DNA of 64,000 nt from a virus (IMGVR_UViG_3300014204_000113:64001-128000); one strand, 5' to 3'. Numbered from the stretch's first letter, positions 4,927 to 63,141 are shown. Made by a program: numbers and translations. Notes: generated by a model not told the origin, from the sequence alone.

Positions 4927-4991
4927 GGTGAGGTAAGGTAAGGTTTGGTACGGTTAGGTTGGGTGGGGTAAGGTAGGGTGTGGTATGGTAA
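4927..4991 (+). ncRNA. GGT-NN pentamer array A1 (13 units), putative guide RNA
   Basis: NN = GA AA AA TT AC TA TG GG AA AG GT AT AA; perfect 5-nt period; followed by a 12-bp hairpin. Confidence 0.85.
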
Positions 4992-4993
4992 GG

Positions 4994-5021
4994 GTGCAAG
5001 TCTAAAGAATTAGACTTGCAC
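4994..5021 (+). terminator. perfect 12-bp hairpin closing array A1 (terminator or 3' handle)
   Basis: GTGCAAGTCTAA-AGAA-TTAGACTTGCAC. Confidence 0.7.
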
Positions 5022-5054
5022 AGTTTCAAAGAATTAAAAAAGGAGAAATAAACA

Positions 5055-5309
5055 ATGTTAATGACACCACAGAATGAAGATTGGAATGAATTTTGCGCTA
5101 TTCTTGAAGGGCCAGAAGGCTGCGATTTTAAGAAAGATGAAAACGACAAAATCGTATGGAAGTGTGATAGTAGTATGGATAGACCGCTTGCCAATAAAAT
5201 TCTCGCTGAATATTTTCCAGAGATAGACATTGAAGGTTCGTTAGAATATTTCGATGAACATGGAGGCCTCTGTGATTGTGAAATTCTGTTTAATGTAGGT
5301 GATGAATAA
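5055..5309 (+). CDS. DUF2695-like hypothetical protein
   Basis: C-terminal HGGLCDCEILFN motif. Confidence 0.6.
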   Translation: MLMTPQNEDWNEFCAILEGPEGCDFKKDENDKIVWKCDSSMDRPLANKILAEYFPEIDIEGSLEYFDEHGGLCDCEILFNVGDE

Positions 5310-5716
5310 AAAGGGAGATAATTATGGATTGTTTTAACAGAGTAAGGTTTGGTGCGTGTCCTTATAGATTATCAAATCCAAATTACAGTTCTGTTAATGC
5401 TGCTGCTTGTTTAAAAACAGATTGTTTGGCTTTCGCGATAAAACATGAAATTAATGAACGATCAGGAAGAACCAGAGAAAGACCTTTTTGCCAAGCCCTT
5501 AAAATTTATTTGGATTAAAAAAGGAGAAACAAAATGGGTCCAAAAACTTGTTATGAATGCAACAACAAAGATTTGTGCGCTATCCTTTTTGTTTTTCAAA
5601 AGGCGATGGAAGAAAGTCCTACGCTTCCTGTAGTGGACAGTGATGATTTTGAACATAGGCTATATGAACTGCTTGGTCAAGACTGTTTGTATTATAATTA
5701 AAGGGAGACAAATAAA

Positions 5717-5992
5717 ATGCCTACAATTAAAATTCCAGCAGAATTGGCAAGAGATATCATTTATGATGACACGGACGAAGGAGAATTGGTTGAAGAAGAA
5801 ATTTTTGATAGTGGCAGATGGTCTATCACTTATAAAGCTATAATTAAATATCAGGATAAATTTTACAAAACATTTTATAGAGTAGGCGCTACTGAAGCAC
5901 AAGAAGAAAGACCGTGGGAATATGATGATGAAGCAGAGTTGGTTGAGGTTAAGCAAGTAGAGAAAATGGTTAAAGTTTGGGAAAAAGTTTAA
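5717..5992 (+). CDS. phage hypothetical protein
   Basis: RW...GATEAQE pattern common in phages; GGGAG RBS. Confidence 0.6.
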   Translation: MPTIKIPAELARDIIYDDTDEGELVEEEIFDSGRWSITYKAIIKYQDKFYKTFYRVGATEAQEERPWEYDDEAELVEVKQVEKMVKVWEKV

Positions 5993-5993
5993 A

Positions 5994-6302
5994 ATGCAGT
6001 TTGATCTAATATCTCACATACAACGACAGAAAGATTTTTCTCTCAAAACCTTTGGTCCTGGTTTTCGCACTCAAGGTATTCTTGACCATATCAAAAAAGA
6101 ATTGAAAGAAATTGAAGAAGAACCATATTCCATGGAATGGTTGGATGTGGTGATTTTGGCTCTTGATGGAGCGTGGAGAGCAGGTTTCACTCCAGAAGAA
6201 ATTGTTAAAGTGATAGAAGATAAACAAACTAAAAATGAAAATAGAAAATGGCCAGATTGGAAATTATTTGGTCAAGATGAAGTGATTGAACATATAAAGT
6301 AG
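5994..6302 (+). CDS. dATP/dGTP pyrophosphohydrolase-like protein (DUF550, MazG-like)
   Basis: TFGPG...HIKKELKEI...EWLDV...KQTKNENRKWPDW. Confidence 0.75.
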   Translation: MQFDLISHIQRQKDFSLKTFGPGFRTQGILDHIKKELKEIEEEPYSMEWLDVVILALDGAWRAGFTPEEIVKVIEDKQTKNENRKWPDWKLFGQDEVIEHIK

Positions 6303-6310
6303 GAGGATAG

Positions 6311-6769
6311 ATGGCAGATTTTGACAATAATAGATTTGCATCAAAAAATCAAGAATGGGAAACACCAACAGAACTTTTCAATATTTTAAATGAAGAATTT
6401 AATTTCAATTTTGATGTGTGTGCTGATGAAAACAATAAGAAAGTAAATGATTATTTTTCAGAACAAGACGATGCTTTGAGCAGAGAATGGAAGGGTATAT
6501 GTTGGATGAATCCTCCATATAAAGATTTAAAATTGTGGGTCAAGAAAGCCTATCTTGAAAGTAGACACAAAGATTGTGTTGTTGTTTGTCTTGTTCCCGC
6601 TAGAACTAATACTAATTGGTTCTATGAATATTGCATGAAAGGCGAAATAAGATTTATTAAAGGCAGACCTAAATTTAAAGGGTGTGAACACGGCTTGCCA
6701 CAACCACTTGCAATAATCGTATTTGGATTAGATTATCAAAATAATTATAAATCTGTAAAGTTGAAATAA
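6311..6769 (+). CDS. phage DNA N6-adenine methyltransferase
   Basis: EWETP, FDVCA, WMNPPY, LVPART. Confidence 0.9.
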   Translation: MADFDNNRFASKNQEWETPTELFNILNEEFNFNFDVCADENNKKVNDYFSEQDDALSREWKGICWMNPPYKDLKLWVKKAYLESRHKDCVVVCLVPARTNTNWFYEYCMKGEIRFIKGRPKFKGCEHGLPQPLAIIVFGLDYQNNYKSVKLK

Positions 6770-6771
6770 TT

Positions 6772-9700
6772 ATGGCCTTTGTCCACCTCCACACCCATAC
6801 AGATCGCAGTTTGCTCGATGGTGCTGCTAAAATTTCAGACTACATTGTTGAAGTTGTTCGACACAATCAAAGTCATTTGGCGATAACAGACCATGGAAAT
6901 TGTGATTGCTTCCTTGAATTTCAGAAAGAGGCTTTGAAACAATCTATAACCCCAATCTTTGGTGTGGAATTCTACATCGTCCCAGACATCACTAAAAAAG
7001 AAAAATACGAAAAGAAATATCATATAACAGTTTTAGTTCAAAATAAGGTTGGGTTTACCAATGTCCTAAAAATGCTCACCATAGCCAATCTAGAAGGTCA
7101 TTATTATAGACCACAAATTGATCCATCTATATTGCTTAAAAATTATGAAGGTCTAGTTTTTATGACTGCTTGTGTGTCATCTTTTATTAATATGGAAGGA
7201 GGAATTGAATTATTATTAGAATTAAATAAAAAAGCACCAACCTATCTTGAATTGATGCCGCACAATTATCCCATCCAAAAAGAAATCAATTTAAAGAAAT
7301 TGGAATTGGGAAAGAAGTATAATATTCAATTTTCAGCAAGTAATGATGCGCACTACGCAAAACCAGAACATGCCCAAGCGCAGGAAATGTTGCTTGCCAT
7401 CCAGAAGAAGGCTAAATGGGATGACCCAAAAAGATGGAAGTTTGATTTTGGAGGTTTATATTTAAAGTCTGAACAAGAAATGGAACAAGCGTTTATAGAA
7501 CAAAATTGTGTTCCTAAAGAAATTTGGCGTCCAGCAATGGACAACACCATGGAAATCGCCAAACTATGCGAAAACTTCAAGATAAGAAAAAGAAAAGTTT
7601 CTTTGCCAAAAGTCTATGGATATGAGCACAGAGATGAAACAGAGTTGATGAGGGAAATTATTGAAAGCGGATTAAAAGAAAGAAAAATAGGAGATTACGA
7701 TACATATAGAAATAGAATAGAAGAAGAATTTGAAATAATTTGTAAATTGAATTTTCAAAGATACTTCCTTATAGTATGGGAATTGATAGATTGGTGTAAG
7801 AAGAATGGGATTGGTGTCGGTCCTTGTCGTGGGTCATCAGGCGGAAGTTTAATCTGTTATTTAATGCATATTACAGATATAGACCCAATAAAATATGGTC
7901 TTATCTTTGCTCGTTTTATTTCTATCGAACGCAACGATCTGCCAGATATTGATGTTGATTACGAAGATATAAAAAGAGAAGAAGTAAAAAAACATTTAAG
8001 AGATTGTTATGGAGAATACAATGTAGCAGGAATATCAACATTTTTAACATTAAAAGGGAGAGGGGCATTACGAGATGTAGCAAGGGTTTTTGATTTACCA
8101 TTAAGAGAAGTTGATTTAGTTGCAAAGGAGATAGAAACAAAATTAGACGGGGATAAACTTTGCGGACATACAATTGAAGAAGCATGTAAAAAATCTGAAA
8201 TTGTCGCTTCATTTAAAAAGAAATATCCAGAAACAGTTCAACTTGCAATAGATTTAGAAGGGCAGACGAAAGCTGTCGGCCAACATGCGGCTGGAGTAGT
8301 TGTTTCTTCTGATGATTTAAGGAAAGGGGAAAGATGTAATCTTTGTATTAGAAGTGGAGAAATTGTAGTTAATTGGGACAAAGAAAATGCAGAACAAATG
8401 GGGTTAATGAAACTTGATGTTCTTGGTTTAACTTCATTGACTATTATTAATTCTTCTAAGAAGTTTATTAAAGAGAATTATGATATTGATATAGAATTAG
8501 ATAAACTTACATTAGATGACAAAGAAATATATGAAGAAATTTCTAAAGGAAATAATGTAGGTTTATTTCAATTGAATTCACATGGTTTAACTGGCTTATG
8601 TAAAGAGATGGGAGTAAAAGAATTTAATGACATCGTTCTTGCAACTGCCATCTTTCGTCCAGGTGTGCTCGGAAGTGGAATGGCAGATGAATATATCAAA
8701 AGAAGGAAAAATAAAAAGGAAATAAAATATATTCATCCAAAGTTAAAAAAATATACAAAAGACACGCTTGGAATTGTTTTATATCAAGAACAAGTAATGT
8801 GGGTAATGTATGAACTTGCTGGCTTACCTTGGTCTATTTGTGATAAAGTAAGAAAAGTAATGGGTAAATCTCAAGGAGACGCAAAGTTTCAAAAATTTAA
8901 ACAACAATTTATTGATGGTTGTAAAAATAATAAGACGTTATCAGAAAAAGAAGCAGATAAAGTTTGGGATACATTAGCTTCATTCTCAAAATATGGATTC
9001 AACTTAAGTCACGCCACTGCTTATTCTATGATAACTTATTATTGTGCCTATCTCAAATATTACTACCCTAAAGAATTTCTCTGCGCTTGTTTAACTTATG
9101 GTGGCGAAGATAAGAAAGCAGAATATGTCAATGAAGCAAGAAGGTTGGGTTTGGAAGTAAGCCTACCAAAAATAGATAAATCACTTGCAGATGTTTGGTA
9201 TCCGAATAAAGACAGTAATATCATCTATGCGCCATTGACTGAAATAAAAGGTGTAGGGAAAACACAAGCAGAAAAGATAATTGAGCAAGGTTCAAATAAG
9301 AAAGTTGGTTTTTTCACTATCATGGATCAATCTGTTGTGCCTACCAATTCTACTGATGAATTATTGAATAAAGTAGGATTTTATAAGAAAACTTCTTTGA
9401 CACAAAAAGAGTTGATGAAAGCTAGACAATATCTTAATTTTAATCCATTGACTGGTATGAATAGATTTAGTAGATTACCAAAAGATTTTGATTATTCAGA
9501 CGATGATATTATTAAATGCAATTTGGAAGGATTTGAAGGTAATCTTATTGAAATAAAGAAATATGGAAAGAAGATAGAATGTGATAAATGCGAGTTGAGG
9601 AGAGAAGCAAAACAGATTGTTTTCCCATCTTTTGGACGCTATAATATAATGGCAATCGGGGAAGCACCCGGATCACGAGAAAATGAAGAAGGAATTGGGT

Positions 9701-10257
9701 TTGTAGGTGATGCAGGAAAAGATATTCTTTGGCCAGAATTGAAGAAGCATAATTTAGTTAGAGACATGTTTCACCTAAGCAACATCTGCAAATGCTTCCC
9801 TGGGAAGAAAATCAAAACGCCAACTAAAAATCATATAAAAATTTGTTCTGAACATATTATAGATGAAATTAATAATTTAAAACCAATAATGATTCTTGCT
9901 TTTGGTAATACTAATGTTAAATTTTTCAAAGAACAAGATGGTGGAATTACCGCTTTGAATGGAACTACTGAATGGTCAGATAAATTCCAATGTTGGATTT
10001 CATTTTGTGTGCATCCAGCATCATGTCTCTATCAACCATCAAATAAAGAACTATTTGAGAAAGGAATAAAGAATTTCGCAGATAAAATAAATATGATTGG
10101 TGGTAATTGGTTAAGGAAAAATAAAGAACAGAAATCCAACAGAAAATGTCCTTATGGTGGTAAATTTGGGATAGATAACAACGAGTATGAGGAATGTGAA
10201 GTATGTAATATTTGGCTTGATTGCACTAAAATTGCTATGAATGATGATTTTAAATGA
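6772..10257 (+). CDS. dnaE: DNA polymerase III alpha (DnaE) fused to a family-4 uracil-DNA glycosylase domain and a C-terminal Cys motif
   Basis: PHP HLHTH/TDHG, RGSSGGS, PDIDVD, HAAG, KLDVLGL, YGFN.SH; then CDKC, GEAPG..E...G.GFVG.AG, HPA. Confidence 0.92.
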   Translation: MAFVHLHTHTDRSLLDGAAKISDYIVEVVRHNQSHLAITDHGNCDCFLEFQKEALKQSITPIFGVEFYIVPDITKKEKYEKKYHITVLVQNKVGFTNVLKMLTIANLEGHYYRPQIDPSILLKNYEGLVFMTACVSSFINMEGGIELLLELNKKAPTYLELMPHNYPIQKEINLKKLELGKKYNIQFSASNDAHYAKPEHAQAQEMLLAIQKKAKWDDPKRWKFDFGGLYLKSEQEMEQAFIEQNCVPKEIWRPAMDNTMEIAKLCENFKIRKRKVSLPKVYGYEHRDETELMREIIESGLKERKIGDYDTYRNRIEEEFEIICKLNFQRYFLIVWELIDWCKKNGIGVGPCRGSSGGSLICYLMHITDIDPIKYGLIFARFISIERNDLPDIDVDYEDIKREEVKKHLRDCYGEYNVAGISTFLTLKGRGALRDVARVFDLPLREVDLVAKEIETKLDGDKLCGHTIEEACKKSEIVASFKKKYPETVQLAIDLEGQTKAVGQHAAGVVVSSDDLRKGERCNLCIRSGEIVVNWDKENAEQMGLMKLDVLGLTSLTIINSSKKFIKENYDIDIELDKLTLDDKEIYEEISKGNNVGLFQLNSHGLTGLCKEMGVKEFNDIVLATAIFRPGVLGSGMADEYIKRRKNKKEIKYIHPKLKKYTKDTLGIVLYQEQVMWVMYELAGLPWSICDKVRKVMGKSQGDAKFQKFKQQFIDGCKNNKTLSEKEADKVWDTLASFSKYGFNLSHATAYSMITYYCAYLKYYYPKEFLCACLTYGGEDKKAEYVNEARRLGLEVSLPKIDKSLADVWYPNKDSNIIYAPLTEIKGVGKTQAEKIIEQGSNKKVGFFTIMDQSVVPTNSTDELLNKVGFYKKTSLTQKELMKARQYLNFNPLTGMNRFSRLPKDFDYSDDDIIKCNLEGFEGNLIEIKKYGKKIECDKCELRREAKQIVFPSFGRYNIMAIGEAPGSRENEEGIGFVGDAGKDILWPELKKHNLVRDMFHLSNICKCFPGKKIKTPTKNHIKICSEHIIDEINNLKPIMILAFGNTNVKFFKEQDGGITALNGTTEWSDKFQCWISFCVHPASCLYQPSNKELFEKGIKNFADKINMIGGNWLRKNKEQKSNRKCPYGGKFGIDNNEYEECEVCNIWLDCTKIAMNDDFK

Positions 10258-11756: not shown

Positions 11757-11916
11757 TGAAAATTAGATGGGAAGTTGAAGATGGTTATGTTGGCAAATCA
11801 GGACCACATTATCTTGAAATAGACGATGATGAGTTGGAAGGTTTGTCAAAAGAAGAAACAGAAAGTTATATCAACGATTCTGTTCAAGAAGAATTTGAAC
11901 AGAATGTTTATCCTGT

Positions 11917-14350: not shown

Positions 14351-14355
14351 ATCAA

Positions 14356-14431
14356 GCGGGAATAGCTCAATTGGTAGAGCGCAGACCTTCCCGGTCTGAG
14401 GTTGAGTGTTCAAACCACTCTCCCTGCTCCA
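14356..14431 (+). tRNA. tRNA-Gly(TCC), atypical
   Basis: cloverleaf GCGGGAA...TCCCTGC-T-CCA; anticodon stem CAGAC/GTCTG, loop CT-TCC-CG; T-arm GAGTG-TTCAAAC-CACTC. Confidence 0.8.
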
Positions 14432-17482: not shown

Positions 17483-18586
17483 ATGGAGTTTATAATGCCA
17501 CCAAGAAAGAAAACAGATGATGTTGTAAATCAAATCAAAGAAGTTGCAAATAGTCCTGTGAGAAAAGATGATGAACGAGTTGAGTTTTTGAACAGTGGTT
17601 CAACTTTATTAAATTTAGCTGCTTCACAAAAAGGTAAAGATGGTGGATGGGCGCGAGGGAGAGTAATTAATTTGGTTGGTGATTCTAGTTCTGGGAAAAG
17701 CGCCCTTGCATTAGAAGTTTGTGCTCAAAGTCTTTACAATATTAAAAATATAGAATCTAAAATATATCCAAAACCTCAAAAGGTTTCAATAGTTTACAAC
17801 AATGTTGAAGGCGTAATGGATTTTCCAATTTCACAAATGTTCGGTGAGAAATTTAATAATGAAATCGAATGGATACAAACACCAACTTGTGAAGGTTTTG
17901 GTAAAGATTATCAACAAAGAGTCCGTAATTTAAAATCTGGAGAATTTCTTTTATATATTTTAGATTCAATTGATGCTTTAACAACAGAAGCTTCTTCAGA
18001 AAGAATGGATCAACTTTTAACCGATAAAAAAGTTGGTGGTTCTTATGGTTTAGAAAAACCAAAATTTTTTTCAAGTGAATTTTTCAATCATTTATGTGGA
18101 ATAATGAAAGGAAAAGATTCAACACTAGTTTGTATCAGTCAAGTTAGACAAAATATTGGCATAATGTTTGGGGAAAAACTTACAAGAACTGGTGGGAAAG
18201 CTCTAGATTTTTATGCACATCAAGTTTGTTGGTTGGCAACCATTGAAAAAATGAAGAAAACTTTTCGTAATCAAGATAGAATTTATGGAGTAAAAATAAG
18301 AGCACGTTTTAAAAAAAATAAAACAGCAATACCTTATAGAGAATGTGATTTTAGTATTATTTTCAATTTTGGAATTGATGATGTCAATTCAATGTTAGAT
18401 TTTTGTTTTGGTCCAAAAAGCAAGGAAATGACTTGGAATGACCAAGAAATGAAACGAGGAGATTTAGTAGAATTAATTGACAACTCAAAGGAGGATTATT
18501 TACTGCTACAAGAACTGACTGAAAAAATTTGGCATGAAATAGAGGAGGGAATAAAACCACGAAGAAAAAACAGGTTTATTGATTGA
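17483..18586 (+). CDS. recA: RecA/UvsX-like recombinase
   Basis: GDSSSGKS Walker A, LDSIDAL, ISQVR, GGKALDFYA, KNK. Confidence 0.9.
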   Translation: MEFIMPPRKKTDDVVNQIKEVANSPVRKDDERVEFLNSGSTLLNLAASQKGKDGGWARGRVINLVGDSSSGKSALALEVCAQSLYNIKNIESKIYPKPQKVSIVYNNVEGVMDFPISQMFGEKFNNEIEWIQTPTCEGFGKDYQQRVRNLKSGEFLLYILDSIDALTTEASSERMDQLLTDKKVGGSYGLEKPKFFSSEFFNHLCGIMKGKDSTLVCISQVRQNIGIMFGEKLTRTGGKALDFYAHQVCWLATIEKMKKTFRNQDRIYGVKIRARFKKNKTAIPYRECDFSIIFNFGIDDVNSMLDFCFGPKSKEMTWNDQEMKRGDLVELIDNSKEDYLLLQELTEKIWHEIEEGIKPRRKNRFID

Positions 18587-18706
18587 GGTTAGGTTTGGTT
18601 AGGTGGGGTCCGGTAAGGTGAGGTAAGGTGAGGTGTGATGAGGTTGGGTAAGGTGGGGTGAGGTAAGGTATGGTAAGGTACGGTATGGTAGGCTAGGGTG
18701 AGGTAT
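18587..18706 (+). ncRNA. GGT-NN pentamer array A2 (24 units), putative guide RNA
   Basis: starts at the base after the recA stop; NN = TA TT TA GG CC AA GA AA GA GT GA TG AA GG GA AA AT AA AC AT AG AG GA AT. Confidence 0.88.
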
Positions 18707-18711
18707 GGATT

Positions 18712-19026
18712 TTGCGACTTAAATTTGAAAGTTGTTTTGAAACTCAATTTCGGGAAGAACTTGAAAGTCGTGGATTCATAAAGAATAAAGATTTCATACA
18801 AGAATTTCCAGTTCGGTATCCAACCCGAATAATCGACTTTGTATTTTATGACAAAAAGGTTGGTGTTGAATTGGATGGTCCACATCACATTGGTAAGAAA
18901 AAGTATGTTGACAAGTGGAAAGATGAAAAAGCAATAAAACAAGGATGGGTTATTGTAAGATTTGATTTGGAGCAAATGAAAGATATCAAGAATTGTGTTG
19001 ATATGGCTTTAAGTTTGATTAAATGA
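18712..19026 (+). CDS. DUF559/Vsr-like PD-(D/E)XK endonuclease
   Basis: E...QEFPV...IIDF...VELDGPHH...D..KD.....GW.IVRF; TTG start with GAGGT RBS inside the array. Confidence 0.8.
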   Translation: MRLKFESCFETQFREELESRGFIKNKDFIQEFPVRYPTRIIDFVFYDKKVGVELDGPHHIGKKKYVDKWKDEKAIKQGWVIVRFDLEQMKDIKNCVDMALSLIK

Positions 19027-19033
19027 ATTTTAT

Positions 19034-19093
19034 GGTGCGGTTGGGTCTGGTGTGGTACGGTTTGGTCAGGTATGGTCAGGTAGGGTAAGGTAT
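19034..19093 (+). ncRNA. GGT-NN pentamer array A3 (12 units)
   Basis: NN = GC TG CT GT AC TT CA AT CA AG AA AT; directly upstream of the RAMP-like gene. Confidence 0.85.
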
Positions 19094-19122
19094 GGGTTTT
19101 TCTATACTCAAATTAAAACAAG

Positions 19123-19653
19123 ATGGAGAAACAAATCATGGAGTTGACAAGAATTAAAGTAACAGTTCATGGAACAAAACCTCTTTTGGTGCATCGTTTT
19201 GCGGAAGAAGAAAGCGGCAAATCCAGGAAGAAAGCAACTGAGGATTCAAAAACGCAGGCAGAAAAGGCTCTTTACACAAATGCAGATGGACCTTATGCAC
19301 CATCTTCTTGGTTTGAAGGAGCTATGGTTAAAGCCGGTGTAAATTTCTCGTTGCGCGGCAAGAAAACTTACAAAGATTTGGTTAAAAGTGCGGTTGTGGT
19401 GACACCAGAAGAAATTCCTCTACGCAACGAATGGGAAGTAGATTCTCGTCCTGTTGTGATTAGCGGCAGGATTATGCGCCATCGTCCTAAATTTAAAGAA
19501 TGGTCGGCAGAATTCACAGTTGAAATTACAGACCCGCAATTACCAGCAAATGTCTTGCAAGACATTTTGAAAGATGCAGGACAATATTGTGGCGTGGGTG
19601 ACTACAGACCCAAGTTTGGTACTTTTGAAATTGTTGAATTTAAAGAAATTTAA
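19123..19653 (+). CDS. stand-alone RAMP/Cas7-like protein, paralog 1 (GGT arrays)
   Basis: VHGTKPLL, PSS, DSRPVV...RIMRHRPKF..W, C-terminal G-loop AG..CGVGDYRPKFGTF. Confidence 0.8.
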   Translation: MEKQIMELTRIKVTVHGTKPLLVHRFAEEESGKSRKKATEDSKTQAEKALYTNADGPYAPSSWFEGAMVKAGVNFSLRGKKTYKDLVKSAVVVTPEEIPLRNEWEVDSRPVVISGRIMRHRPKFKEWSAEFTVEITDPQLPANVLQDILKDAGQYCGVGDYRPKFGTFEIVEFKEI

Positions 19654-19690
19654 TTGATAATTTATGTAGCAATAAAATTTAATTATTCTA

Positions 19691-20394: not shown

Positions 20395-20934
20395 ATGGAT
20401 TACGAATATTATTTTTCGATGTGCGACAAAGTAGCGGAAAAAAGCAAATGTTTCAGTCGTAAAATTGGTGTTCTTGTAATGACACCAGACCTTAGTATTA
20501 TAAATACAGCGTATAATGGCCCAGCACGAAAAGTAAGTCATTGTGATAGTCAAGAACGATTACAATGGCTTGAAAAACAATTGAAAGATACCCATGTTGG
20601 AGCGGTAGATTTATATTTATTGGACAATGGCTATGGAACAAAGTGTCCTCGTCAAATATTAAAATTTAAAAGTGGAGAAGGATTACATCTATGTCAGGCT
20701 GCACATGCGGAAAGAAATGCAATTGCAAACTGCGCTAGAGAAGGAATAAAAACAAAAAATAACTGGATGTTGATGAATTGTAGCCTTCCTTGTCAAGAAT
20801 GTTCCAAAGGAATTATTGGTGCAGGTTTTTCAAAAATAATATGTGTTGAAGGTGATGATTATGACAAAGGAAGCCGGTGGATTTTAGATCAAGCTGGAAT
20901 TGAAATAGTTCAAATAAAAAGACAAAAAATATAA
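20395..20934 (+). CDS. dCMP deaminase
   Basis: S.C..RKIG, YNG, HAERNAI, PCQEC. Confidence 0.88.
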   Translation: MDYEYYFSMCDKVAEKSKCFSRKIGVLVMTPDLSIINTAYNGPARKVSHCDSQERLQWLEKQLKDTHVGAVDLYLLDNGYGTKCPRQILKFKSGEGLHLCQAAHAERNAIANCAREGIKTKNNWMLMNCSLPCQECSKGIIGAGFSKIICVEGDDYDKGSRWILDQAGIEIVQIKRQKI

Positions 20935-22503: not shown

Positions 22504-22758
22504 ATGAAAACCCTATTCCTGATTTTGCTTCTATGTCTGCTTGCAAGTCCCGCATGGCCCAGAGACCACAACAATTATGTAATCAGAGACAAGAATTATA
22601 CTGTCAAAAATTATGTCAAAGATGGAAAAATTTATGATAAGAATTACCGTCTTGAAGGTTACATAAGTCCTAATGGCACTATCAGAGATAGAAATTATAA
22701 AACTGAAGGTTATCTTGACAGGAATAGAAGTGGCGGTCGCAAAGGGCGAAACAAATGA
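22504..22758 (+). CDS. secreted protein with three IxD(K/R)NY...Y repeats
   Basis: signal peptide MKTLFLILLLCLLASPAWP; repeats IRDKNY, IYDKNY, IRDRNY. Confidence 0.7.
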   Translation: MKTLFLILLLCLLASPAWPRDHNNYVIRDKNYTVKNYVKDGKIYDKNYRLEGYISPNGTIRDRNYKTEGYLDRNRSGGRKGRNK

Positions 22759-22983: not shown

Positions 22984-23058
22984 AGCATGGTTAGGCGAGT
23001 CCGGGCGATGCTAGGTAGGGCATGGCCAGGCGGGTCTAGGTGTGGCAGGTTGTGGCGA
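22984..23058 (+). ncRNA. GGC-NN pentamer array B1 (15 units)
   Basis: NN = AT TA GA CG GA TA AG AT CA GG TA GT AG GT GA; triplet mostly GGC/GGT with variants. Confidence 0.85.
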
Positions 23059-23106
23059 GGATTTAAAAAACGAAAAATCTAACACAAATAAAAGGAGGAA
23101 CAACAA

Positions 23107-23661
23107 ATGAACTTGGTACTGTGTAAATACAAAATTACTGGCTTATTTCCACTTTTAACCCACAGTCCTGCTGGAATGAGGCAAGCGGCCAATGCGCCAA
23201 AAGTCAAGAAGATTCCATCGCCAGAAGATGAAGCACAAGCTGGTTTGTATATTGATAATGATGGAAATTATTGCATCCCGTCTATTGCTTTTCGTTCAGC
23301 TTTATTGAATGGATTGAAAGGGAAAAAGATTGGCAAGGTGGGTGCAATTTCAGTGTTTCAAGCTGCGGTTTTTAACGTGGACGAATTGAGTCCATTAGTT
23401 GACCCTGAAACTGGGCGAGCATTAAGGGAATATACGATCGACACTCGTAGAGCTATCGTGCAAAGACAAGGAATTTTAAGAAACCGTCCAAGATTTGAAA
23501 AATGGGGATGTAATGTTTTTCTTCAAATCGACTTGGAAATAACCACACCTGAGCAAGTAGAAGAAGCATTGAATACGGCTGGTCAAATCATTGGCGTGGG
23601 TGATTTCCGTATTGAAAAGAGAGGAATGTTCGGTAAGTTTCAAGCCGAATTGGTTGAATAA
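23107..23661 (+). CDS. stand-alone RAMP/Cas7-like protein, paralog 2 (GGC arrays)
   Basis: ITGLFPLL, IPS, DTRRAIV...ILRNRPRF..W, AG..IGVGDFR....GMFGKF. Confidence 0.8.
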   Translation: MNLVLCKYKITGLFPLLTHSPAGMRQAANAPKVKKIPSPEDEAQAGLYIDNDGNYCIPSIAFRSALLNGLKGKKIGKVGAISVFQAAVFNVDELSPLVDPETGRALREYTIDTRRAIVQRQGILRNRPRFEKWGCNVFLQIDLEITTPEQVEEALNTAGQIIGVGDFRIEKRGMFGKFQAELVE

Positions 23662-23679
23662 AAGATTTTAAAGATTTGT

Positions 23680-23744
23680 GGCAAGGCGAGGCTGGGCTAG
23701 GCGGGGCTAGGCGGGGCTAGGCGGGGCTAGGTATGTCAAGGCGA
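23680..23744 (+). ncRNA. GGC-NN pentamer array B2 (13 units)
   Basis: NN = AA GA TG TA GG TA GG TA GG TA AT AA GA; internal (GGCGGGGCTA)x3. Confidence 0.8.
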
Positions 23745-23789
23745 GGTTTGAAAAAGAAATTAAGAACAAGAAATATAATGATTTTTCGC

Positions 23790-23839
23790 GGCGGGGTGGG
23801 GCGATGCCCGGCCCGGCATGGTAAGGCAAGTTAAGGCGA
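23790..23839 (+). ncRNA. GGC-NN pentamer array B3 (10 units)
   Basis: NN = GG GG GA CC CC AT AA AA AA GA. Confidence 0.8.
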
Positions 23840-23870
23840 GGGTTTTCAAACAAAACAAAGGAGAATAAAT

Positions 23871-24548
23871 ATGCTAATCAAAGCAGCAGAATTGATTGAG
23901 GATTTCAGTTTATATCCACGTTCCCAAGTGGACACAACACATGTAAGAAATATTGCAGAAGCAATGATGGCAGGAGAAAAATTTCCGTCTATCATCATTG
24001 ATGAACAAAATAGGATTATTGATGGCTTCCATCGGAAAAGAGCTACATTGAGGGTTTTTGGAGATGAGGCTGATATTGAAGTAGAAGTTCGACAATATGT
24101 TAACGATAAAGAAAGATTTCTTGATGCTTTGAGATATAATTCAAGACACGGTAAGGGAATAACTGGAGTTGAACAGACAGGAGCTATTTTGAAGGCTCAA
24201 GGTTTCAAGATTGACCCTAAATTTATCGCTTCTGCTTTGGGAATCAGCCAAGAAAGAGTCAAAGAAATCGTGCAATGTAAAGTCGGGAACATTCGCCAAG
24301 GTACGACTGCTCATGGAGACCCAGTTCCTCTAAAACGCTCTATGCAGCATTTTGCTGGGAAAGAAATGACTGTTGAGCAAGTTAAGGTGAATGATATGGC
24401 TCCCGGCACGCCACAATCTCTTCTTATCAATCAACTTATCGGATTTATTGAAAGCGGTAGTTTACAACTGGAAAATGAAAAGATTGTTAATGGACTCATC
24501 CATTTGAAGGAACTTTTAAATGGATTGGTTTTGGAAAAAGCGGTTTGA
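23871..24548 (+). CDS. ParB/Srx N-terminal domain protein inside the GGC module
   Basis: YPR, FPSIII, IIDGFHRKRA, N..HG, followed by a possible HTH (IASALGIS). Confidence 0.75.
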   Translation: MLIKAAELIEDFSLYPRSQVDTTHVRNIAEAMMAGEKFPSIIIDEQNRIIDGFHRKRATLRVFGDEADIEVEVRQYVNDKERFLDALRYNSRHGKGITGVEQTGAILKAQGFKIDPKFIASALGISQERVKEIVQCKVGNIRQGTTAHGDPVPLKRSMQHFAGKEMTVEQVKVNDMAPGTPQSLLINQLIGFIESGSLQLENEKIVNGLIHLKELLNGLVLEKAV

Positions 24549-24563
24549 AATAATTAAAGATTT

Positions 24564-24623
24564 GGCTCGGCTTGGTTGGGCGCGGCTAGGCTATGCGCGG
24601 CTTTGCGTGGCAGGGCAAGGCGT
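24564..24623 (+). ncRNA. GGC-NN pentamer array B4 (12 units)
   Basis: NN = TC TT TG GC TA TA GC TT GT AG AA GT. Confidence 0.8.
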
Positions 24624-24677
24624 GGATTTATCATCACAAAGAACAAATTTGAATTAAGTGAAACAGGAGGAGGTAAT

Positions 24678-24695
24678 TTATGATTAATCTTTACA
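24678..24695 (+). repeat. 18-bp direct repeat, right copy
   Basis: TTATGATTAATCTTTACA. Confidence 0.8.
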
Positions 24696-24723
24696 CGAGG
24701 TTGGCCTATGTTAGACGACCCGA

Positions 24724-25565: not shown

Positions 25566-25652
25566 ATCGGTGTGGCGGAATGGTAAAGGCAATAGATTGC
25601 TAATCTATCTGGTGTCAAAGCCGCGAAGGTTCGAATCCTTCACTTACCACCA
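25566..25652 (+). tRNA. degenerate tRNA-Ser(GCT)-like (possible pseudo-tRNA)
   Basis: ATAGA-TTGCTAA-TCTAT anticodon arm, long variable arm, GAAGG-TTCGAAT-CCTTC, CCA; acceptor stem pairs poorly. Confidence 0.6.
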
Positions 25653-25663: not shown

Positions 25664-25739
25664 GGACTCGTAATTCAGTTGGTAGAAGCCTCAACTCATA
25701 ATTGAGTAGTCTCCCGTTCGAGCCGGGACGAGTCCACCA
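25664..25739 (+). tRNA. tRNA with CAT anticodon (elongator Met or Ile2)
   Basis: GGACTCG/CGAGTCC acceptor, CTCAA-CTCATAA-TTGAG, TCCCG-TTCGAGC-CGGGA, ACCA. Confidence 0.88.
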
Positions 25740-52343: not shown

Positions 52344-52413
52344 GGTCCGGTATGGTTTGGTGAGGTATGGTGAGGTGCGGTAAGGTGAGGTCAGGTTTGG
52401 TGGGGTAAGGTAT
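52344..52413 (+). ncRNA. GGT-NN pentamer array A5 (14 units)
   Basis: NN = CC AT TT GA AT GA GC AA GA CA TT GG AA AT; same leader and tail as A3. Confidence 0.85.
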
Positions 52414-52445: not shown

Positions 52446-52520
52446 GGTATGGTCAGGTATGGTTAGGTAAGGTATGGTACGGTTCGGCGGGGTTTGGTTC
52501 GGTAAGGTAAGGTATGGTAA
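52446..52520 (+). ncRNA. GGT-NN pentamer array A6 (15 units)
   Basis: NN = AT CA AT TA AA AT AC TC GG TT TC AA AA AT AA. Confidence 0.88.
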
Positions 52521-52522
52521 GG

Positions 52523-52549
52523 TAGATGGGAGAGTCTATCTCCCATCTA
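52523..52549 (+). terminator. 11-bp hairpin closing array A6
   Basis: TAGATGGGAGA-GTCTA-TCTCCCATCTA. Confidence 0.7.
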
Positions 52550-52568
52550 AATTTTAAACGGAGGAATA

Positions 52569-54179
52569 ATGCGCGTTCTTTTTGTGAATGAAAAATGGGT
52601 CCGCAACGATCCGACTTTACGAGAGGCAAGAGGCACAGTAGAAAGCTACCTAGAAAGCGGTTTTGGCACGGCATCAGAATTTCATTGCGATGAATATTTT
52701 TATAACTACAAGAGGGATTGGAATTTTCCTCTGATAGAAAAGATAATTGAAGAAAGACCAGATGCGATTTTTTTTATGTGGATTAACAGCCAGTACAATC
52801 CTTCATTAGATGTATTTTCTATTATTCATAAAATGGGAATACCCATAGTTTGTTGGTGGGGAGATTTTTCGTTTGAAGGTTCTGTAAGAAACGCTCAAAA
52901 TTTATCTCCATTTATATCCACACATTTGATTGCAGACACTCCAATTGCTTTAACAAATGATGTCCATATAGAAAAATACAAACATATTTGGCCTACACCA
53001 ATTAACCAATTCTTTTTTAAAGGAGAAGAAAAAGACAGAATTATTCCAGTGTCTTTTCCAGGTGGAACTATTGAAGGTGGAAATAAAGGACCAAGAGAAA
53101 AGTACATAAAATATTTAATTGAAAATGGAGTAGGTGTTTTTGTGGGAGGAACAAGAAAAGAAGAAACAACTATGCAATATGCTGATACGCTTAGAAAATC
53201 TCAAATAGTCATAAACTTTTCACCTCTAGGTCAATATGGTTGCCCGTTGAAAGGAAGGTCTTTTGAAGCGATATGGTGTGGCTCTTTATTGATGGAGCCG
53301 TCTGGTTCCTTTCTTGAATACCATTTTACACCATATTCTGATTATATTCCTTATGATAATGAAAATGATTTATTAAATAAGATCAGATATTTTAGCGCAA
53401 ATAAGGAAGAAAGAGAATCAATCGCAAATCGTGGACATGAAAGAGCAATTCAAAAATACAACCCATTTTCTTTTTGGAATAAAATATTTAATGATTATTT
53501 AATTCCATATGATTTACATCTTGATATGCAGAATATACGCGGATTATTGGATTTCTTCATCTCTAAAAAGAAAGAAGTCTTTTGTAATGATTTTGTTTTC
53601 ATTAAAGAAATTTCATATTTAATTGAAAACTTGAATATCAAAGAATTTTGGGAAACTGGAAGTTATTTGGGTCATTCAACTGATTTCATCAAAAGTTTAT
53701 TCCCAAAATTGGACGTGTTCAGTTGCGACATTCACGAAGGCTATCTTGAAACAGCAAAAAATAATTGTCCTTTGGTAGATTACAAACTAATTGATTCTGT
53801 TAATTTTCTAAAAGAAAGAATTGACAATTATTCTGTCCCAACTTTTGTTTTTCTCGATGCACATGGTCATGGTGGTGGTTTGCCATTAGAAAAAGAATTG
53901 CAACTGATAGGGAATTCTGAAAAGAAATATGTACTATGTATTCATGATTGCAGACTTCCGAAAAGACCTATTTTTGGATGGGATAATTATAATGGAGTTG
54001 ATATTTCTGTTGAACTAATAGAAAAGGTTTTGAAGAAAACTGATTGTATTTTTGATATCTTTATACCATCAAATATTTATAATCATGACCCGCTAAGAGG
54101 AAGATGTTATGTTTTCGTAAATTGGTTTGAAAATTATACTATTGATTCTAAACTATTTACAAAATTGGAGGATATTTAA
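52569..54179 (+). CDS. GT-B (CgeB/Glyco_trans_1_2-like) glycosyltransferase fused to a SAM-methyltransferase-like domain
   Basis: KGRSFEAIWCG, HF.P..DY; C-terminal ETGSYLG, FLDAH, IHD. Confidence 0.75.
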   Translation: MRVLFVNEKWVRNDPTLREARGTVESYLESGFGTASEFHCDEYFYNYKRDWNFPLIEKIIEERPDAIFFMWINSQYNPSLDVFSIIHKMGIPIVCWWGDFSFEGSVRNAQNLSPFISTHLIADTPIALTNDVHIEKYKHIWPTPINQFFFKGEEKDRIIPVSFPGGTIEGGNKGPREKYIKYLIENGVGVFVGGTRKEETTMQYADTLRKSQIVINFSPLGQYGCPLKGRSFEAIWCGSLLMEPSGSFLEYHFTPYSDYIPYDNENDLLNKIRYFSANKEERESIANRGHERAIQKYNPFSFWNKIFNDYLIPYDLHLDMQNIRGLLDFFISKKKEVFCNDFVFIKEISYLIENLNIKEFWETGSYLGHSTDFIKSLFPKLDVFSCDIHEGYLETAKNNCPLVDYKLIDSVNFLKERIDNYSVPTFVFLDAHGHGGGLPLEKELQLIGNSEKKYVLCIHDCRLPKRPIFGWDNYNGVDISVELIEKVLKKTDCIFDIFIPSNIYNHDPLRGRCYVFVNWFENYTIDSKLFTKLEDI

Positions 54180-55156: not shown

Positions 55157-55162
55157 TTTATT

Positions 55163-59674: not shown

Positions 59675-59886
59675 ATGAACACTTATATATTTTTTAGAGA
59701 ATTAAATAAATATATATTTAATGAAAAGTGCGATGAAAAAAGATCATGTAAAGATTGTGATTATCAACAATGTTGTTTCTATACTAAATGTTTGAGAAGA
59801 TATAGCAACAAACATATTTTAGAAACATTTAAAATTGTATATGATTTATAAAAAATTATTTCTAATCTACTAAGAAGGAATTATTA

Positions 59887-61272
59887 ATGATTGATTTTTT
59901 GTTTATCAAACCTGGAAATCAAAAAGTCTTATATGCAGAAACTTCTGCTTTTAATTTAACGGCAATTGAGCCTCCATTTTGGCCACTACTTCTTGCATCG
60001 TTTCTCACAAGACAAAACATTCCTTCTAGAATTATAGACTTGGAAGTCCAAAGCATTGATTCTTTGAATCACATGTTAATAGACAACAAACCAAAATTTA
60101 CAGTAATTTGTGTCAGCGGGCATAATCCAAACGCGAGTATCATGAGCATGGCTGGTTTAGATGATTTATGCAAAAATATAAAAGATGTTTGTGCAACTAC
60201 TAAAATCATTCTTCATGGTTTATATCCCTCTTCTTGTCCAACAAAAGTTTTAGAAAAACATAAATTGGTAGATGAAATTCTAATGAAGGAGGGTTTTTTA
60301 AGTCTAGGTCATTTGATGGGCTACAAAAGAACAGAACCTATATCAATAAATGATATAGGAAAAATTAATTGGTCTTTAATAGACATAGCTAAATACCGCG
60401 CTCATAATTGGCATCTGTTTGGAAACATTCACAATAGGTCTCCATATGGAATTGCTTTCACTTCTTTTGGTTGTCCTCACAATTGCGATTTTTGTTGTGT
60501 AAATTTAATGTATAGTAAAGTACAATTAAGAGATATAGATTTGGTATTCCAAGACATTAAAAATCTATATGATAGAGGCGTAAAAAATTTTAAATTTATG
60601 GACGAGTTGTTTTTAATGCACAAGGGTAGGGTACAACAATTATGCTCAATGTTAATTGCTAATAAAATGCAAGACATCAATGGTTGGGCTTACGCTAGAA
60701 CAGATTCTATAGATGAAGATATAATTACACTAATGAAAAATGCTGGAGTGAAATGGCTAGGGCTGGGTTATGAGAGTGGTTCGCAATTAATATTAGATTC
60801 TTCTGATAAAAAACAAAGTTTAAAAAAAGCATATCAAGCTACAGAAATATGCAAAAAGGTTGGGATGAATATTTGTGGTAATTTCGTATTTGGGTTGGCA
60901 GATGATAATTATGAAACCATGGAAGCCACTTCTAAATTAGCTATTGACTTACAACCAGAATGGGCTAATTATAATGTGGTTTTTGCTTTTCCTAGGACGA
61001 AGTTATATGATAAGGTGAAAAATGAGCCTTGGTTTAATGAACCAACTGAGTATGAGCAGTATTCTCAACATGGCTATTCCTGCACACCAATGGGAACAAA
61101 ATATCTTAGCCCAAAAGAAGTCTTGGAATTTAAGGATGAAGCATTCAGAGAATTTTACCAGAACGAGAATTATCTGAGGATGTTAGAGGTAAAATTTGGG
61201 GTTGAAACCAGAGAATATGTAGCAAATTCACTAATTTACTATCCAAAAAGAAAACTTTATGATTTGACCTAA
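59887..61272 (+). CDS. B12-binding radical SAM enzyme
   Basis: TSFGCPHNCDFC, GYESG, N-terminal Rossmann-like domain. Confidence 0.85.
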   Translation: MIDFLFIKPGNQKVLYAETSAFNLTAIEPPFWPLLLASFLTRQNIPSRIIDLEVQSIDSLNHMLIDNKPKFTVICVSGHNPNASIMSMAGLDDLCKNIKDVCATTKIILHGLYPSSCPTKVLEKHKLVDEILMKEGFLSLGHLMGYKRTEPISINDIGKINWSLIDIAKYRAHNWHLFGNIHNRSPYGIAFTSFGCPHNCDFCCVNLMYSKVQLRDIDLVFQDIKNLYDRGVKNFKFMDELFLMHKGRVQQLCSMLIANKMQDINGWAYARTDSIDEDIITLMKNAGVKWLGLGYESGSQLILDSSDKKQSLKKAYQATEICKKVGMNICGNFVFGLADDNYETMEATSKLAIDLQPEWANYNVVFAFPRTKLYDKVKNEPWFNEPTEYEQYSQHGYSCTPMGTKYLSPKEVLEFKDEAFREFYQNENYLRMLEVKFGVETREYVANSLIYYPKRKLYDLT

Positions 61273-61278
61273 AAGGAC

Positions 61279-61307
61279 TTGCTGGCCAAGAAATTTTGAA
61301 GTATAAT
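61279..61307 (+). promoter_or_regulatory. sigma70-type promoter
   Basis: TTGCTG-17-TATAAT. Confidence 0.5.
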
Positions 61308-61708
61308 CTTAATAAGGAGAAGAAATTTGACAGAAAAATTAATTTCAATGAAGGGTGGTAACAAACCTTCAATAACAAGAGAAACAATAAGATTAATGAA
61401 AGAGGAATTACCATACATCCTTGAATATTTTCCTATTTATGCTGAAATGACAAAAGCTAAATTTGAGGCTTTAAAAGAGAAAGGGTTTACTGAAATTCAG
61501 GCATTAGAATTGTGCAAGGGTTTTATGTTATAAGGAGAAATTATGGGTGATTATGCTTTGCCTTCTATTTATGAAAGATGCGGCTGGAAAAAAGACGAGG
61601 TTTATCTTCATTCCTTGCTTGAAAGATGTGCAGAAGGACTTGCAGCAGCAACTCAATATGGCGCAGGTAATTGGTCTGAACTAATTAAAGAAATTTATAG
61701 GGTGATAA

Positions 61709-62410
61709 ATGTCCAAGAAGACTAAATCCAAGAAACCTAAAGGTATCTCTCCAGAAGAATTCTTAAAAAACCTTAACACTCTAGATTTGTTGGATGGGAA
61801 TTTTTCTGATAATGATGCCTTAGCTCTTATGAAATTAGCTAAAGAATCAATCAAAGATAAAAGTGGACCTTTTAATTTTTTAGAAATTGGAACATGGAAG
61901 GGGAAATCACTTATTTGTCTCTCTGTTATAATAAGTAAATTCCCAGAAAGTAAAATTTTTGCTATAGACCATTTTAAAGGTACATTTGGAACAAACGAAG
62001 AACAACTTGCTAAAACTAATGACATATTGACAACTTGTAAAAATAATTTAAAAATAGTAAATGCTAGTGATATTGTTTGTCTATTAAATATGAATTACTT
62101 TGATGCAATCAAAATATTAAAGCAAAAATTTTTTGACTTTATATATATTGATATGGACAATAGTTATCAAGTAATGAAAAGTGTTTTGTGTGATTCTAGA
62201 AATTTAATTAAAAGTGGAGGAATGATATGTGGAAGAAATTTAATTGCAGATTATCTAGATGTAAAAGAAATTATAGACTCTAATCTTAATAAAGAATATT
62301 TAGAAGAATCAAAAATGCATCCTGGAATTATACGATCTGTCTATGATGTTTTTGCAAATAAATATCAAAAAATGGATAATAGTTCTTTTTGGTATTGGAT
62401 TAATAATTAA
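61709..62410 (+). CDS. class I SAM methyltransferase (Methyltransf_24)
   Basis: LEIGTWKGKS, AIDHF, FIYID, GGMICG. Confidence 0.82.
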   Translation: MSKKTKSKKPKGISPEEFLKNLNTLDLLDGNFSDNDALALMKLAKESIKDKSGPFNFLEIGTWKGKSLICLSVIISKFPESKIFAIDHFKGTFGTNEEQLAKTNDILTTCKNNLKIVNASDIVCLLNMNYFDAIKILKQKFFDFIYIDMDNSYQVMKSVLCDSRNLIKSGGMICGRNLIADYLDVKEIIDSNLNKEYLEESKMHPGIIRSVYDVFANKYQKMDNSSFWYWINN

Positions 62411-62438
62411 TAATATTTGGTAATATCCAACTGGATAT

Positions 62439-62528
62439 TGTGTTGTAATGTTCTGTGTTGTGTGGCGCTGTAGTGTAATGTTAAGTCCTGTAGTGTGGCG
62501 TAGTGTGTTGTTATGTGTTCTATTCTAA
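62439..62528 (+). ncRNA. TGT-NN pentamer array C1 (18 units)
   Basis: NN = GT AA TC GT GT GC AG AA TA CC AG GG AG GT TA GT AT AA; flanked by hairpins AATATCCA/TGGATATT and GGATTC/GAATCC. Confidence 0.82.
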
Positions 62529-62574
62529 GGGGATTCTGTATTGAATCCAAAATAAATTTAAGGAGAATTAAATA

Positions 62575-63141
62575 ATGAAAATTAAAGTTACAATTCAAGG
62601 AACAGTTCCAATTTTATTTAATCGTTTTGCAGAAGAGAATGAAGTTAAAGTTGCTTCTGGAATTAATCCAGTTCAAGGAGGACAAAGAGGAACGCCTAGA
62701 GAACAAGCAGAAAAGAAACTATATCAAGACGTGGATGGGAATTTGTTTCTTCCAAGTCCTATGTTATTTTCTTGTTTAGTAGATGCTGGTAAATTCCATA
62801 AAGTGGGAAGAAATAAAGTTACGACTCAGAAGACTTCTTTAGTTCCTGCCGGTATATCTGTTGAAGAATTAATCATTCCGTTTAATACTAAAGATTGGGA
62901 AATTGATTCTAGAAGCGTTGTGATACCATCTACTGGTGGTAGAATCATGTGTCACAGACCCCGGCTTGATGAGTGGCAATTAACTTTCACTTTGGATGTT
63001 GATACAACAATGTTTGATCCTAAGTTTGTTAGGACTCTTATGGATGATGCAGGCAAGAAATGTGGCTTGGGTGATTATAGACCTAATCGTAAAGGGCCAT
63101 TTGGTAAATTTGTTGTGATTAATTGGGAAGAAGAAAAATAA
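62575..63141 (+). CDS. stand-alone RAMP/Cas7-like protein, paralog 3 (TGT array)
   Basis: IQGTVPIL, LPS, DSRSVVI...RIMCHRPRL..W, AG..CGLGDYRP..KGPFGKF. Confidence 0.8.
   Translation: MKIKVTIQGTVPILFNRFAEENEVKVASGINPVQGGQRGTPREQAEKKLYQDVDGNLFLPSPMLFSCLVDAGKFHKVGRNKVTTQKTSLVPAGISVEELIIPFNTKDWEIDSRSVVIPSTGGRIMCHRPRLDEWQLTFTLDVDTTMFDPKFVRTLMDDAGKKCGLGDYRPNRKGPFGKFVVINWEEEK

Follow-up and report, generated by a model that had tools for sequence, protein, structure and literature searches.

Vipr genes and pentamer arrays

The 64,000-nt stretch of viral DNA analysed here (IMGVR_UViG_3300014204_000113:64001-128000; "the window", from whose first base all positions are counted) makes up bases 64,001–128,000 of a complete, T4-like viral record of 187,988 bp with direct terminal repeats. 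Between positions 4927 and 63141 it holds 11 arrays in which a fixed triplet is combined with two variable bases (NN) in a strict period of 5 nt, and three genes for small RAMP proteins. These proteins are Vipr RAMPs, and we can state firmly that the window holds VIPR systems. VIPR, published in 2026, combines a minimal RAMP protein, Vipr, with guide RNAs (vrRNAs) built of GGY/NN pentamers; in Escherichia phage SUSP1, double-stranded DNA is recognised with a one-base skip and transcription is silenced (bioRxiv 10.64898/2026.04.26.720920). Cryo-electron microscopy places one Vipr protomer on each repeat, with the fixed triplet hidden and the NN presented (10.64898/2026.04.26.720927, PDB 36pp). 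Much of what follows comes from comparison with a single sister genome, a collinear phage of 189,632 bp with ~84% nucleotide identity over 59% of the genome.

The three genes, vipr1 (19123–19653, 176 aa), vipr2 (23107–23661, 184 aa) and vipr3 (62575–63141, 188 aa), are all on the + strand and each starts 30–57 nt after an array. All three proteins match PDB 36pp (E = 1.9e-14, 6.1e-6 and 1.2e-6, respectively). The family profile finds the same entry, 'SUSP1 Vipr protein', at E = 3.6e-36, and vipr1 matches the phiSUSP1 Vipr in tblastn at E = 2e-15 over 97% coverage. An earlier reading made from the nucleotides alone (the sequence-only reading) had noted a resemblance to VIPR, which is borne out; the system it put forward as a new candidate is of a kind already published. 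The proteins are paralogs with 28–41% identity and, as that reading had described, share the glycine-loop (G-loop) motif AG..xG(V/L)GD(Y/F)R..FG.F. The RAMP/Cas7 fold it predicted agrees with an AlphaFold2 (AF2) model of mean predicted local distance difference test score (pLDDT) 92, which has 126 PDB matches at E ≤ 1e-3, the best being Csm3, type VII Cas7, Cmr4 and Cas7-11.

Alignment shows that the residues with which SUSP1 Vipr binds GGY (R138, D177, an aromatic residue at 178, here Y/F/Y, and R179) are kept in all three paralogs, while H17 is kept in vipr1 and vipr2 and is N in vipr3. We considered and rejected a connection between this H17-to-N change and the TGT repeat beside vipr3: the Vipr of the sister phage has Q17/E177/G178, so these positions alone do not predict the repeat type, with the caveat that the sister protein may read its own degenerate NNNNG-like arrays. 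In a quick tree the three paralogs fall in three different clades of the family and are therefore not recent local duplicates. No further vipr paralog was found in the whole genome; an open reading frame (ORF) of similar size at 20395–20934, tried as a fourth candidate, is a dCMP deaminase.

Exact and tolerant period-5 scans confirmed the 11 arrays, all of them intergenic and on the + strand. A3 (GGT-type, 12 units, 19034–19093) lies directly upstream of vipr1, A4 (GGC-dominant, 14 units, 22989–23058) upstream of vipr2 and A11 (TGT-type, 16 units of which 13 are TGT, 62439–62518) upstream of vipr3. The other GGC-type arrays are A5 (14 units, 23680–23749), A6 (10 units, 23790–23839) and A7 (12 units, 24564–24623). 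The remaining five are GGT-type like A3: A1 (13 units, 4927–4991), A2 (24 units, 18587–18706), A8 (20 units, 48664–48763) and the tandem pair A9 (14 units, 52344–52413) and A10 (16 units, 52446–52525). The whole genome has two more, A12 just beyond the end of the window and A13 on the minus strand. The TGT variant had been thought possibly new, but is covered by published non-canonical units, YNNNG (10.64898/2026.04.26.720920) and, in a later VIPR preprint, WGT/NN and TGH/NN.

The dispersed GGT arrays start 0–27 nt past the stop codon of a gene: 27 nt past that of a clamp-like gene for A1, at the very next base after that of a UvsX-like gene for A2, 3 nt past that of an NDP-sugar epimerase gene for A8, and 13 nt for the A9–A10 pair. 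In A1, A2, A8 and A10 the module is made up of variable units, a semi-constant block of 3–4 units, a hairpin and a T-run, the hairpin being absent from A2. The semi-constant last units read roughly AA/GT/AA/GA and then GGG, and have no target match. In A1, A8, A10, A12 and five sister arrays the array ends in GGGU (AUGGG in A10 and its sister ortholog), followed by a perfect stem of 8–16 bp, unrelated in sequence from one array to another, and by ACA(A/G)UUUU or a similar U-run. The tail of A1 (4992–5026), with GGGU, a 12-bp stem-loop and ACAGUUU, is terminator-like (−17.8 kcal/mol, z −6.4), as is that of A8 (48764–48816), a 16-bp stem-loop with a T-run (z −5.4); the A10 hairpin spans 52526–52556 (z −4.1). 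Over the eight tails folded, z ranged from −4 to −8. Folding gave no stable tail for A2 and A3, and by eye the GGC arrays have no hairpin. A2 and A8 exceed the published 9–16 units. Each contains one degenerate unit (GATGA, TGTAG) that its target alignment crosses without losing register, so that the whole array behaves like a single long guide.

A3 and A9 are each immediately preceded by the same 17-nt leader, TTGATTAAATGAATTTT (19015–19031 and 52325–52341). Its frame with respect to the preceding stop codon is not the same in the two places, as though the leader travelled with the array in a mobile module. Within A5 the sequence GGCTAGGCGG recurs about four times with a period of 10 nt, and the guide would thus read a hexamer-periodic target, (TAxGGx)n, for which no target was found. 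Tandem Repeats Finder (TRF), run on the whole window, detected no CRISPR-type repeat-spacer array (period ~60–80 nt), as the sequence-only reading had stated; its statement that cas1 and cas2 are lacking holds for the ~30 neighbours scanned, no systematic profile search of all ORFs having been made.

Guides match neighbouring genes in codon register

The idea of a fixed triplet with NN and one skipped target base per unit is supported by the matches of guides to the genome of the other phage: a 1-nt skip lets 7 of 23 guides score at least 27, a skip of 0 or 2 none, and the matches found with a skip of 3 are orthologous arrays pairing with each other only. Codon position 3 is skipped in every one of the 11 footprints examined, three of them antisense.

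Matches to flanking genes were assessed with a local-segment score against 1000 order-shuffles per guide in flanks of ±600 bp. On the resident flanks the real guides outscore their shuffles for A2 (p = 0.010), A4 (p = 0.031), A8 (p = 0.001) and A10 (p = 0.002), as well as for A13 outside the window (p = 0.001), the outcome favoured by the sequence-only reading, which had proposed this comparison. A1 is not significant against its own genome. The six of 11 arrays said to align to a neighbouring gene become four or five with a match in a gene within ~400 bp, the fifth being A1 counted through the sister allele. The proposed layout of a guide beside its target is clear for the dispersed GGT arrays: the variable units of A1, A2, A8 and A10 match in codon register a site at most ~260 bp away in the flanking gene. 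Among the arrays flanking the vipr genes it is weak for A4, with an in-frame match at 22633–22673, and absent for A3, A5, A6, A7 and A11. The A10 footprint is antisense (52748–52783, − strand), with the skip at the wobble position, in the 5′ part of the downstream gene for a 536-aa protein, and lies inside an 80-bp run that is identical in both phages.

Over whole genomes, full-length matching of guides to their own genome raised only A8 above shuffles, and it took local-segment scoring together with the sister genome to bring the effect out. With these, 18 of 46 guide-by-genome tests place the top genome-wide match at most 700 bp from the guide itself or from its syntenic position, where ~0.35 would be expected, and nine of 18 independent array families are adjacent to their top match (binomial P ~5e-15). 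Scans of viral contigs with exact gapped patterns, the search suggested by the sequence-only reading, gave no match for A3, A4, A7 and A11; strict matching over 10–11 units makes this a weak negative, as it does the absence of matches for A3 and A12 in prokaryote genomes.

Guides fit the alleles of the sister phage

It had been claimed that the guides spell a homolog of the neighbouring gene rather than the resident sequence, and the sister phage supplies such homologs. The first nine units of A1 match the sister clamp allele in frame at 18 of 18 NN positions, compared with 14 of 18 on the resident allele (4814–4840, + strand), which is mismatched and putatively resistant. Conversely, the guide on the clamp side in the sister phage matches the last 11 codons of the clamp-like gene of the window phage (4865–4897, + strand) at 20 of 22 positions and its own allele at 17 of 22; both mismatches are Leu CTA/TTG codon-family switches. 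Targeting of the clamp gene is reciprocal between the two phages. Where these rival modules lie, identity falls to 52–70% over the last ~150 bp of the gene, compared with 85–95% in the flanks, and divergence at codon positions 1 and 2 in the footprints is four times that in the rest of the gene.

A second perfect match is made by sister guide 1116, which fits a site in the gene for the 536-aa protein of the window phage (53934–53969, + strand) at 24 of 24 positions, as against 16 of 24 on its own allele. The window phage does not have this guide, which is a ~160-bp insertion in the sister at a junction where the two genes of the window phage overlap. Another sister guide has an antisense footprint in the gene at 51311–52330 (51394–51426, − strand, 19/22). 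For A2, units 1–19 match the sister UvsX-like allele at 31 of 38 positions and the resident one (18401–18457, + strand; codon positions 1 and 2 read, the third skipped) at 25 of 38. At the A9 site the sister carries a completely different guide, and no target of A9 was found.

A8 behaves differently in that the same array is also present in the sister phage. It matches the resident epimerase allele in frame from codon 20 to codon 3 before the stop (48598–48651, + strand), with 28 of 40 positions over the full guide. The guide spells V-K-A-C-E-M-I-Q-M-L-N-Y-G-R-S-E-F-K, a mosaic of residues found in the C-termini of epimerase homologs, where the resident protein has I-E-V-C-C-M-I-Q-M-M-N-Y-G-R-N-Q-F-K with Arg encoded by AGA instead of CGN. 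No perfect fit to the guide was found among database epimerase homologs, the closer of which are 77–89% identical. The end of the epimerase gene, A8 and its tail together form an island of ~270 bp (48576–48850) that is nearly identical to the sister, the gene being otherwise 55–90% identical; wobble divergence is 0 in the footprint and 0.36 in the rest of the gene. Judged from these sequences, the entire module seems to have been exchanged recently.

For Leu/Arg/Ser codon-family switches, a test of enrichment within footprints had too little power (1 of 4 mapped). Conserved Leu codons in footprints switch family in four of six cases against a background of 15.5%, a count made by eye and post hoc.

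The vipr cassettes and their accessory genes

The sister phage lacks all three vipr cassettes, as clean indels. The vipr1 cassette (18587–19690) comprises A2, an ORF of 104 aa, A3 and vipr1; the vipr2 cassette (22989–24700) A4, vipr2, A5, A6, a ParB-like gene and A7; and the vipr3 cassette (62439–63141) A11 and vipr3. The repeat flavour differs with the adjoining vipr gene, being GGU for vipr1, GGC for vipr2 and UGU for vipr3.

The 104-aa ORF (18712–19026, + strand) encodes an endonuclease catalytic domain of Vsr/EDxHD type, a candidate accessory of the vipr1 cassette comparable to vap1 of SUSP1. It matches Pfam DUF559 (E = 4.5e-8, beyond the Pfam cut-off), and has a homolog of the same length at 89% identity. 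The family invariants D42, E53, D55, G56 and H59 are kept, and E53, D55, H59 and D67 stand in invariant or nearly invariant columns. The best PDB match of its AF2 model (pLDDT 85) is the catalytic domain of I-Bth0305I (3r3p; template-modelling score, TM, 0.69–0.75, root-mean-square deviation 3.1 Å). Since the ORF consists of the catalytic domain only, with no N-terminal NUMOD or helix-turn-helix (HTH) DNA-binding region, we do not class it as a complete homing endonuclease. In the vipr2 cassette the ParB-like protein (23871–24548, + strand, 225 aa; phrog_1033, E = 1.7e-12) is a candidate DNA-binding accessory, and its gene and vipr2 are missing together from the sister phage. No cassette-specific candidate was found for vipr3, and no homolog of SUSP1 vap1, which itself has no Pfam family, was identified.

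The one Vipr of the sister phage is very divergent and lies at another site. In this region (L092:14992-16380, equivalent to G001:154992-156380) it is followed by ~680 bp of non-coding DNA of 47% G+C with a degenerate 5-nt period, whose units mostly end in G, like the published NNNNG class.

A probable module of guide and resistant allele

The window phage carries three VIPR systems together with dispersed solo guides, and we consider it probable that guide and mismatched resident allele form a linked weapon-plus-immunity module in a conflict between sister phages. In a co-infected cell, Vipr1 would be led by the guide to a gene of the rival, for replication or another function, and would block the rival's allele. 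If SUSP1 is a guide to the mechanism, the Vipr filament on the guide would present NN and pair with double-stranded DNA, leaving out every third base, and would silence transcription. A block near the 3′ end of a gene would give transcripts without a stop codon and, in these long operons of one strand, keep read-through from reaching the genes downstream. With guide and mismatched resident allele tightly linked, recombination would not yield phages that target themselves, and the two would therefore behave as one unit. The anti-phage role proposed earlier is better described as conflict between sister phages.

Several observations weigh against this proposal. Perfect targets were found for A1 and two sister guides only, and come from a single sister genome; A2 (31/38), A8 (28/40) and A10 (22/32) have none. 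The neighbour matches of A3, A5, A6, A7, A9 and A11 are at chance in the local shuffle test, and the searches yielded no target for any of these six arrays. Targets lie mostly at the 3′ ends of genes, where the harm done by a block of transcription is less evident. In the sister phage ten GGT arrays stand without a Vipr1-like gene in cis; by analogy with what has been proposed for solo vrRNAs, its guides may borrow a rival's Vipr. A scan for sigma-70 promoters upstream of the arrays found sites no more numerous than in shuffled sequence, and a GAT(T/A)AAAT element precedes only four of 23 arrays. With no general promoter found and arrays starting 0–27 nt after a stop codon, the guides may be transcribed by read-through from the preceding gene, with processing afterwards. 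Finally, we infer every function proposed for the window phage from SUSP1.

The nuclease ORF raises the question of whether sister alleles are cut rather than silenced. Vipr1 with its guide might bring in a nuclease, either the 104-aa EDxHD/Vsr-type protein or some other, that cuts or nicks the sister allele a few dozen to ~250 bp from the guide site, and recombinational repair would then copy the guide module with its flanking resistant allele into the rival, much as the free-standing homing endonucleases of T4-like phages are copied. The ORF has kept its catalytic residues and resembles I-Bth0305I most closely in structure; lacking the NUMOD DNA-binding part of its family (PMC3239194), it would need a targeting partner. 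It stands between A2 and A3, immediately before vipr1 and immediately after a recA-like gene, and recA is the phage gene in which I-Bth0305I, an enzyme with an N-terminal DNA-binding region, homes (PMC3239194). The distance of at most ~260 bp between targets and guide insertion points, the presence or absence of guide modules at exact gene junctions, and the A8 island, whose identity over footprint, array and tail would fit a co-conversion tract, all point the same way. We nevertheless judge this unlikely. Published phage-borne VIPRs silence and do not cut, the nuclease-linked types having been reported from host defence islands only (bioRxiv 10.64898/2026.04.26.720920); the sister vipr cassette has no recognisable nuclease, and the only DUF559 match in that genome is far from its vipr. 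The ORF may also be a homing endonuclease, unrelated or in decay, that just happens to adjoin vipr1, and linkage alone explains the adjacency of guide and target without cutting.

The matches might instead be a historical residue with no role in conflict, if arrays are templated from, or recombined with, local sequence and then drift. Resident matches are indeed imperfect (65–70%), no mechanism of vrRNA acquisition is known, and orthologous arrays differ by unit insertions and substitutions. Drift, however, predicts the best match to the resident allele, whereas the perfect matches (18/18 and 24/24) are to the sister allele and the resident one is imperfect. The Leu and Arg codon-family switches, which keep the protein yet break NN pairing, and the reciprocal targeting of the clamp gene also speak against a residue, and we would be surprised if this were the explanation. 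That the dispersed vrRNAs pair partially with their own flanking genes to tune transcription or termination in long same-strand operons is hardly credible, even though the arrays stand at gene 3′ ends with terminator-like hairpins and A8 and A10 match their own genome as well as the sister's, because perturbing NN pairing abolishes silencing in the published system (with a threshold of at least 80% NN, compared with resident matches here of 65–78%) and because self-regulation does not account for perfect matches to rival alleles or a sister guide against a gene of the window phage.

Genome context

The G+C content of the window is ~33% and all called genes are on the + strand. T4-like replication genes are represented by DNA polymerase, the clamp-like processivity factor, the UvsX-like recombinase, ribonucleotide reductase and dCMP deaminase. 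No cultured phage close to the window phage at the DNA level was found. Single-protein locus searches with the epimerase and UvsX-like genes gave no match, and an alignment search with the clamp returned the same sister phage only. A first metagenome scan found nothing, and a second mostly distant epimerases, the best locus being just 58% identical.

The DNA polymerase gene (6772–10257) encodes 1161 aa, of which the sister match spans 780 residues only; the sister has ~3.3 kb of extra DNA upstream of the match, and this may reflect an insertion or intein in one of the genes. At 44601–46121 a match to HEARO (the IscB omega-RNA; 136 bits) and, behind it, a gene for an RRXRR+HNH protein of 425 aa together form a complete IscB/OMEGA unit. 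Its sister ortholog (86% identity) is at a non-syntenic site, so that the unit appears to be mobile. Rfam identifies three tRNA genes, at 14356–14428, 25569–25649 and 25664–25736.

Comparison with known systems

The closest relative of these systems is the type II VIPR of Escherichia phage SUSP1 and of a P. fulva prophage. Shared with it are a homologous Vipr with the same G-loop and thumb contact residues, GGY/NN arrays both upstream and downstream of vipr, a 1-nt skip on the wobble base, targets on either strand, and encoding by a phage with guides aimed at competing mobile elements. The differences are several. The window phage has three Vipr paralogs of different clades in one genome, each with its own repeat flavour, and its proteins are shorter, two insertions of SUSP1 Vipr being missing. 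Behind the semi-constant block the dispersed arrays end in a plain hairpin with a T-run where SUSP1 has a pseudoknot, and arrays reach 20 and 24 units compared with the published 9–16. The accessory candidates are a Vsr/EDxHD nuclease domain and a ParB-like protein instead of vap1. Most guides lie up to tens of kilobases from any vipr, each beside its own mismatched target.

In this last respect the dispersed arrays resemble the solo vrRNAs of VIPR-null SUSP1-like phages and F5 satellites (bioRxiv 10.64898/2026.10.15.759431), which are also guides without an adjoining vipr, aimed at close relatives, with self-matches scoring below non-self matches so that autoimmunity is avoided. Such a guide may use a rival's Vipr, and this would fit a sister phage with GGT guides and no Vipr1. 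The published solo vrRNAs, in contrast, occupy the place where vipr-vap1 used to be, and their targets are vipr, other vrRNAs or satellites, whereas those described here occur throughout the genome, following core genes (clamp-like, UvsX-like, epimerase and others) at their 3′ ends, and appear to target the rival's allele of the flanking gene.

The Cas7 backbone of Class 1 CRISPR-Cas (Csm3, Cmr4, type VII Cas7) has in common with Vipr the RRM/RAMP fold, the G-loop and thumb, and one protomer per fixed period of RNA. The period in VIPR is 5 nt with two pairing bases, compared with 6 nt and five pairing bases in CRISPR, and the VIPR guide is encoded directly as a repeat tract, TRF having found no repeat-spacer array.

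In population terms there is a parallel with the free-standing homing endonucleases of T4-like phages (seg/mob; marker exclusion). In both cases a selfish element sits between conserved genes, targets the allele of the neighbouring gene in relatives that lack the element while the resident allele is resistant, and shows presence/absence polymorphism at exact gene junctions. With the EDxHD family (I-Bth0305I, PMC3239194) the likeness extends to an EDxHD-type catalytic domain beside a recA-like gene, the ORF here being the catalytic domain only. Recognition by the window phage, as judged from its DNA, would differ from that of homing endonucleases in being made by a guide RNA with Vipr and not by a protein DNA-binding domain.

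In published work VIPR acts as an RNA-guided silencer of satellites, prophages and the VIPR loci of rivals, and full-text searches of the four VIPR papers turned up no account of scattered guides tied to a resistant allele of the core gene beside them. Systems of this kind are already known, but the layout of guide beside target may be new to the literature. If it holds, a further use of VIPR is added, in which guides scattered through a large T4-like genome are each tightly linked to a mismatched copy of their own target and fit a core-gene allele of a sister phage perfectly, and a guide RNA would execute the population logic of homing endonucleases and poison-antidote elements. The target pairs with 18/18 versus 14/18 and 24/24 versus 16/24 matches offer a natural gauge of how many NN mismatches are needed to protect a site, and the co-resident Vipr paralogs with GGU, GGC and UGU repeats a natural test of orthogonality. 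With a nuclease core beside vipr1, one may also ask whether a VIPR carried by a phage is able to cut; were the homing explanation true, the result would be a gene drive between sister phages, built from a VIPR silencer and the catalytic core of a homing endonuclease.

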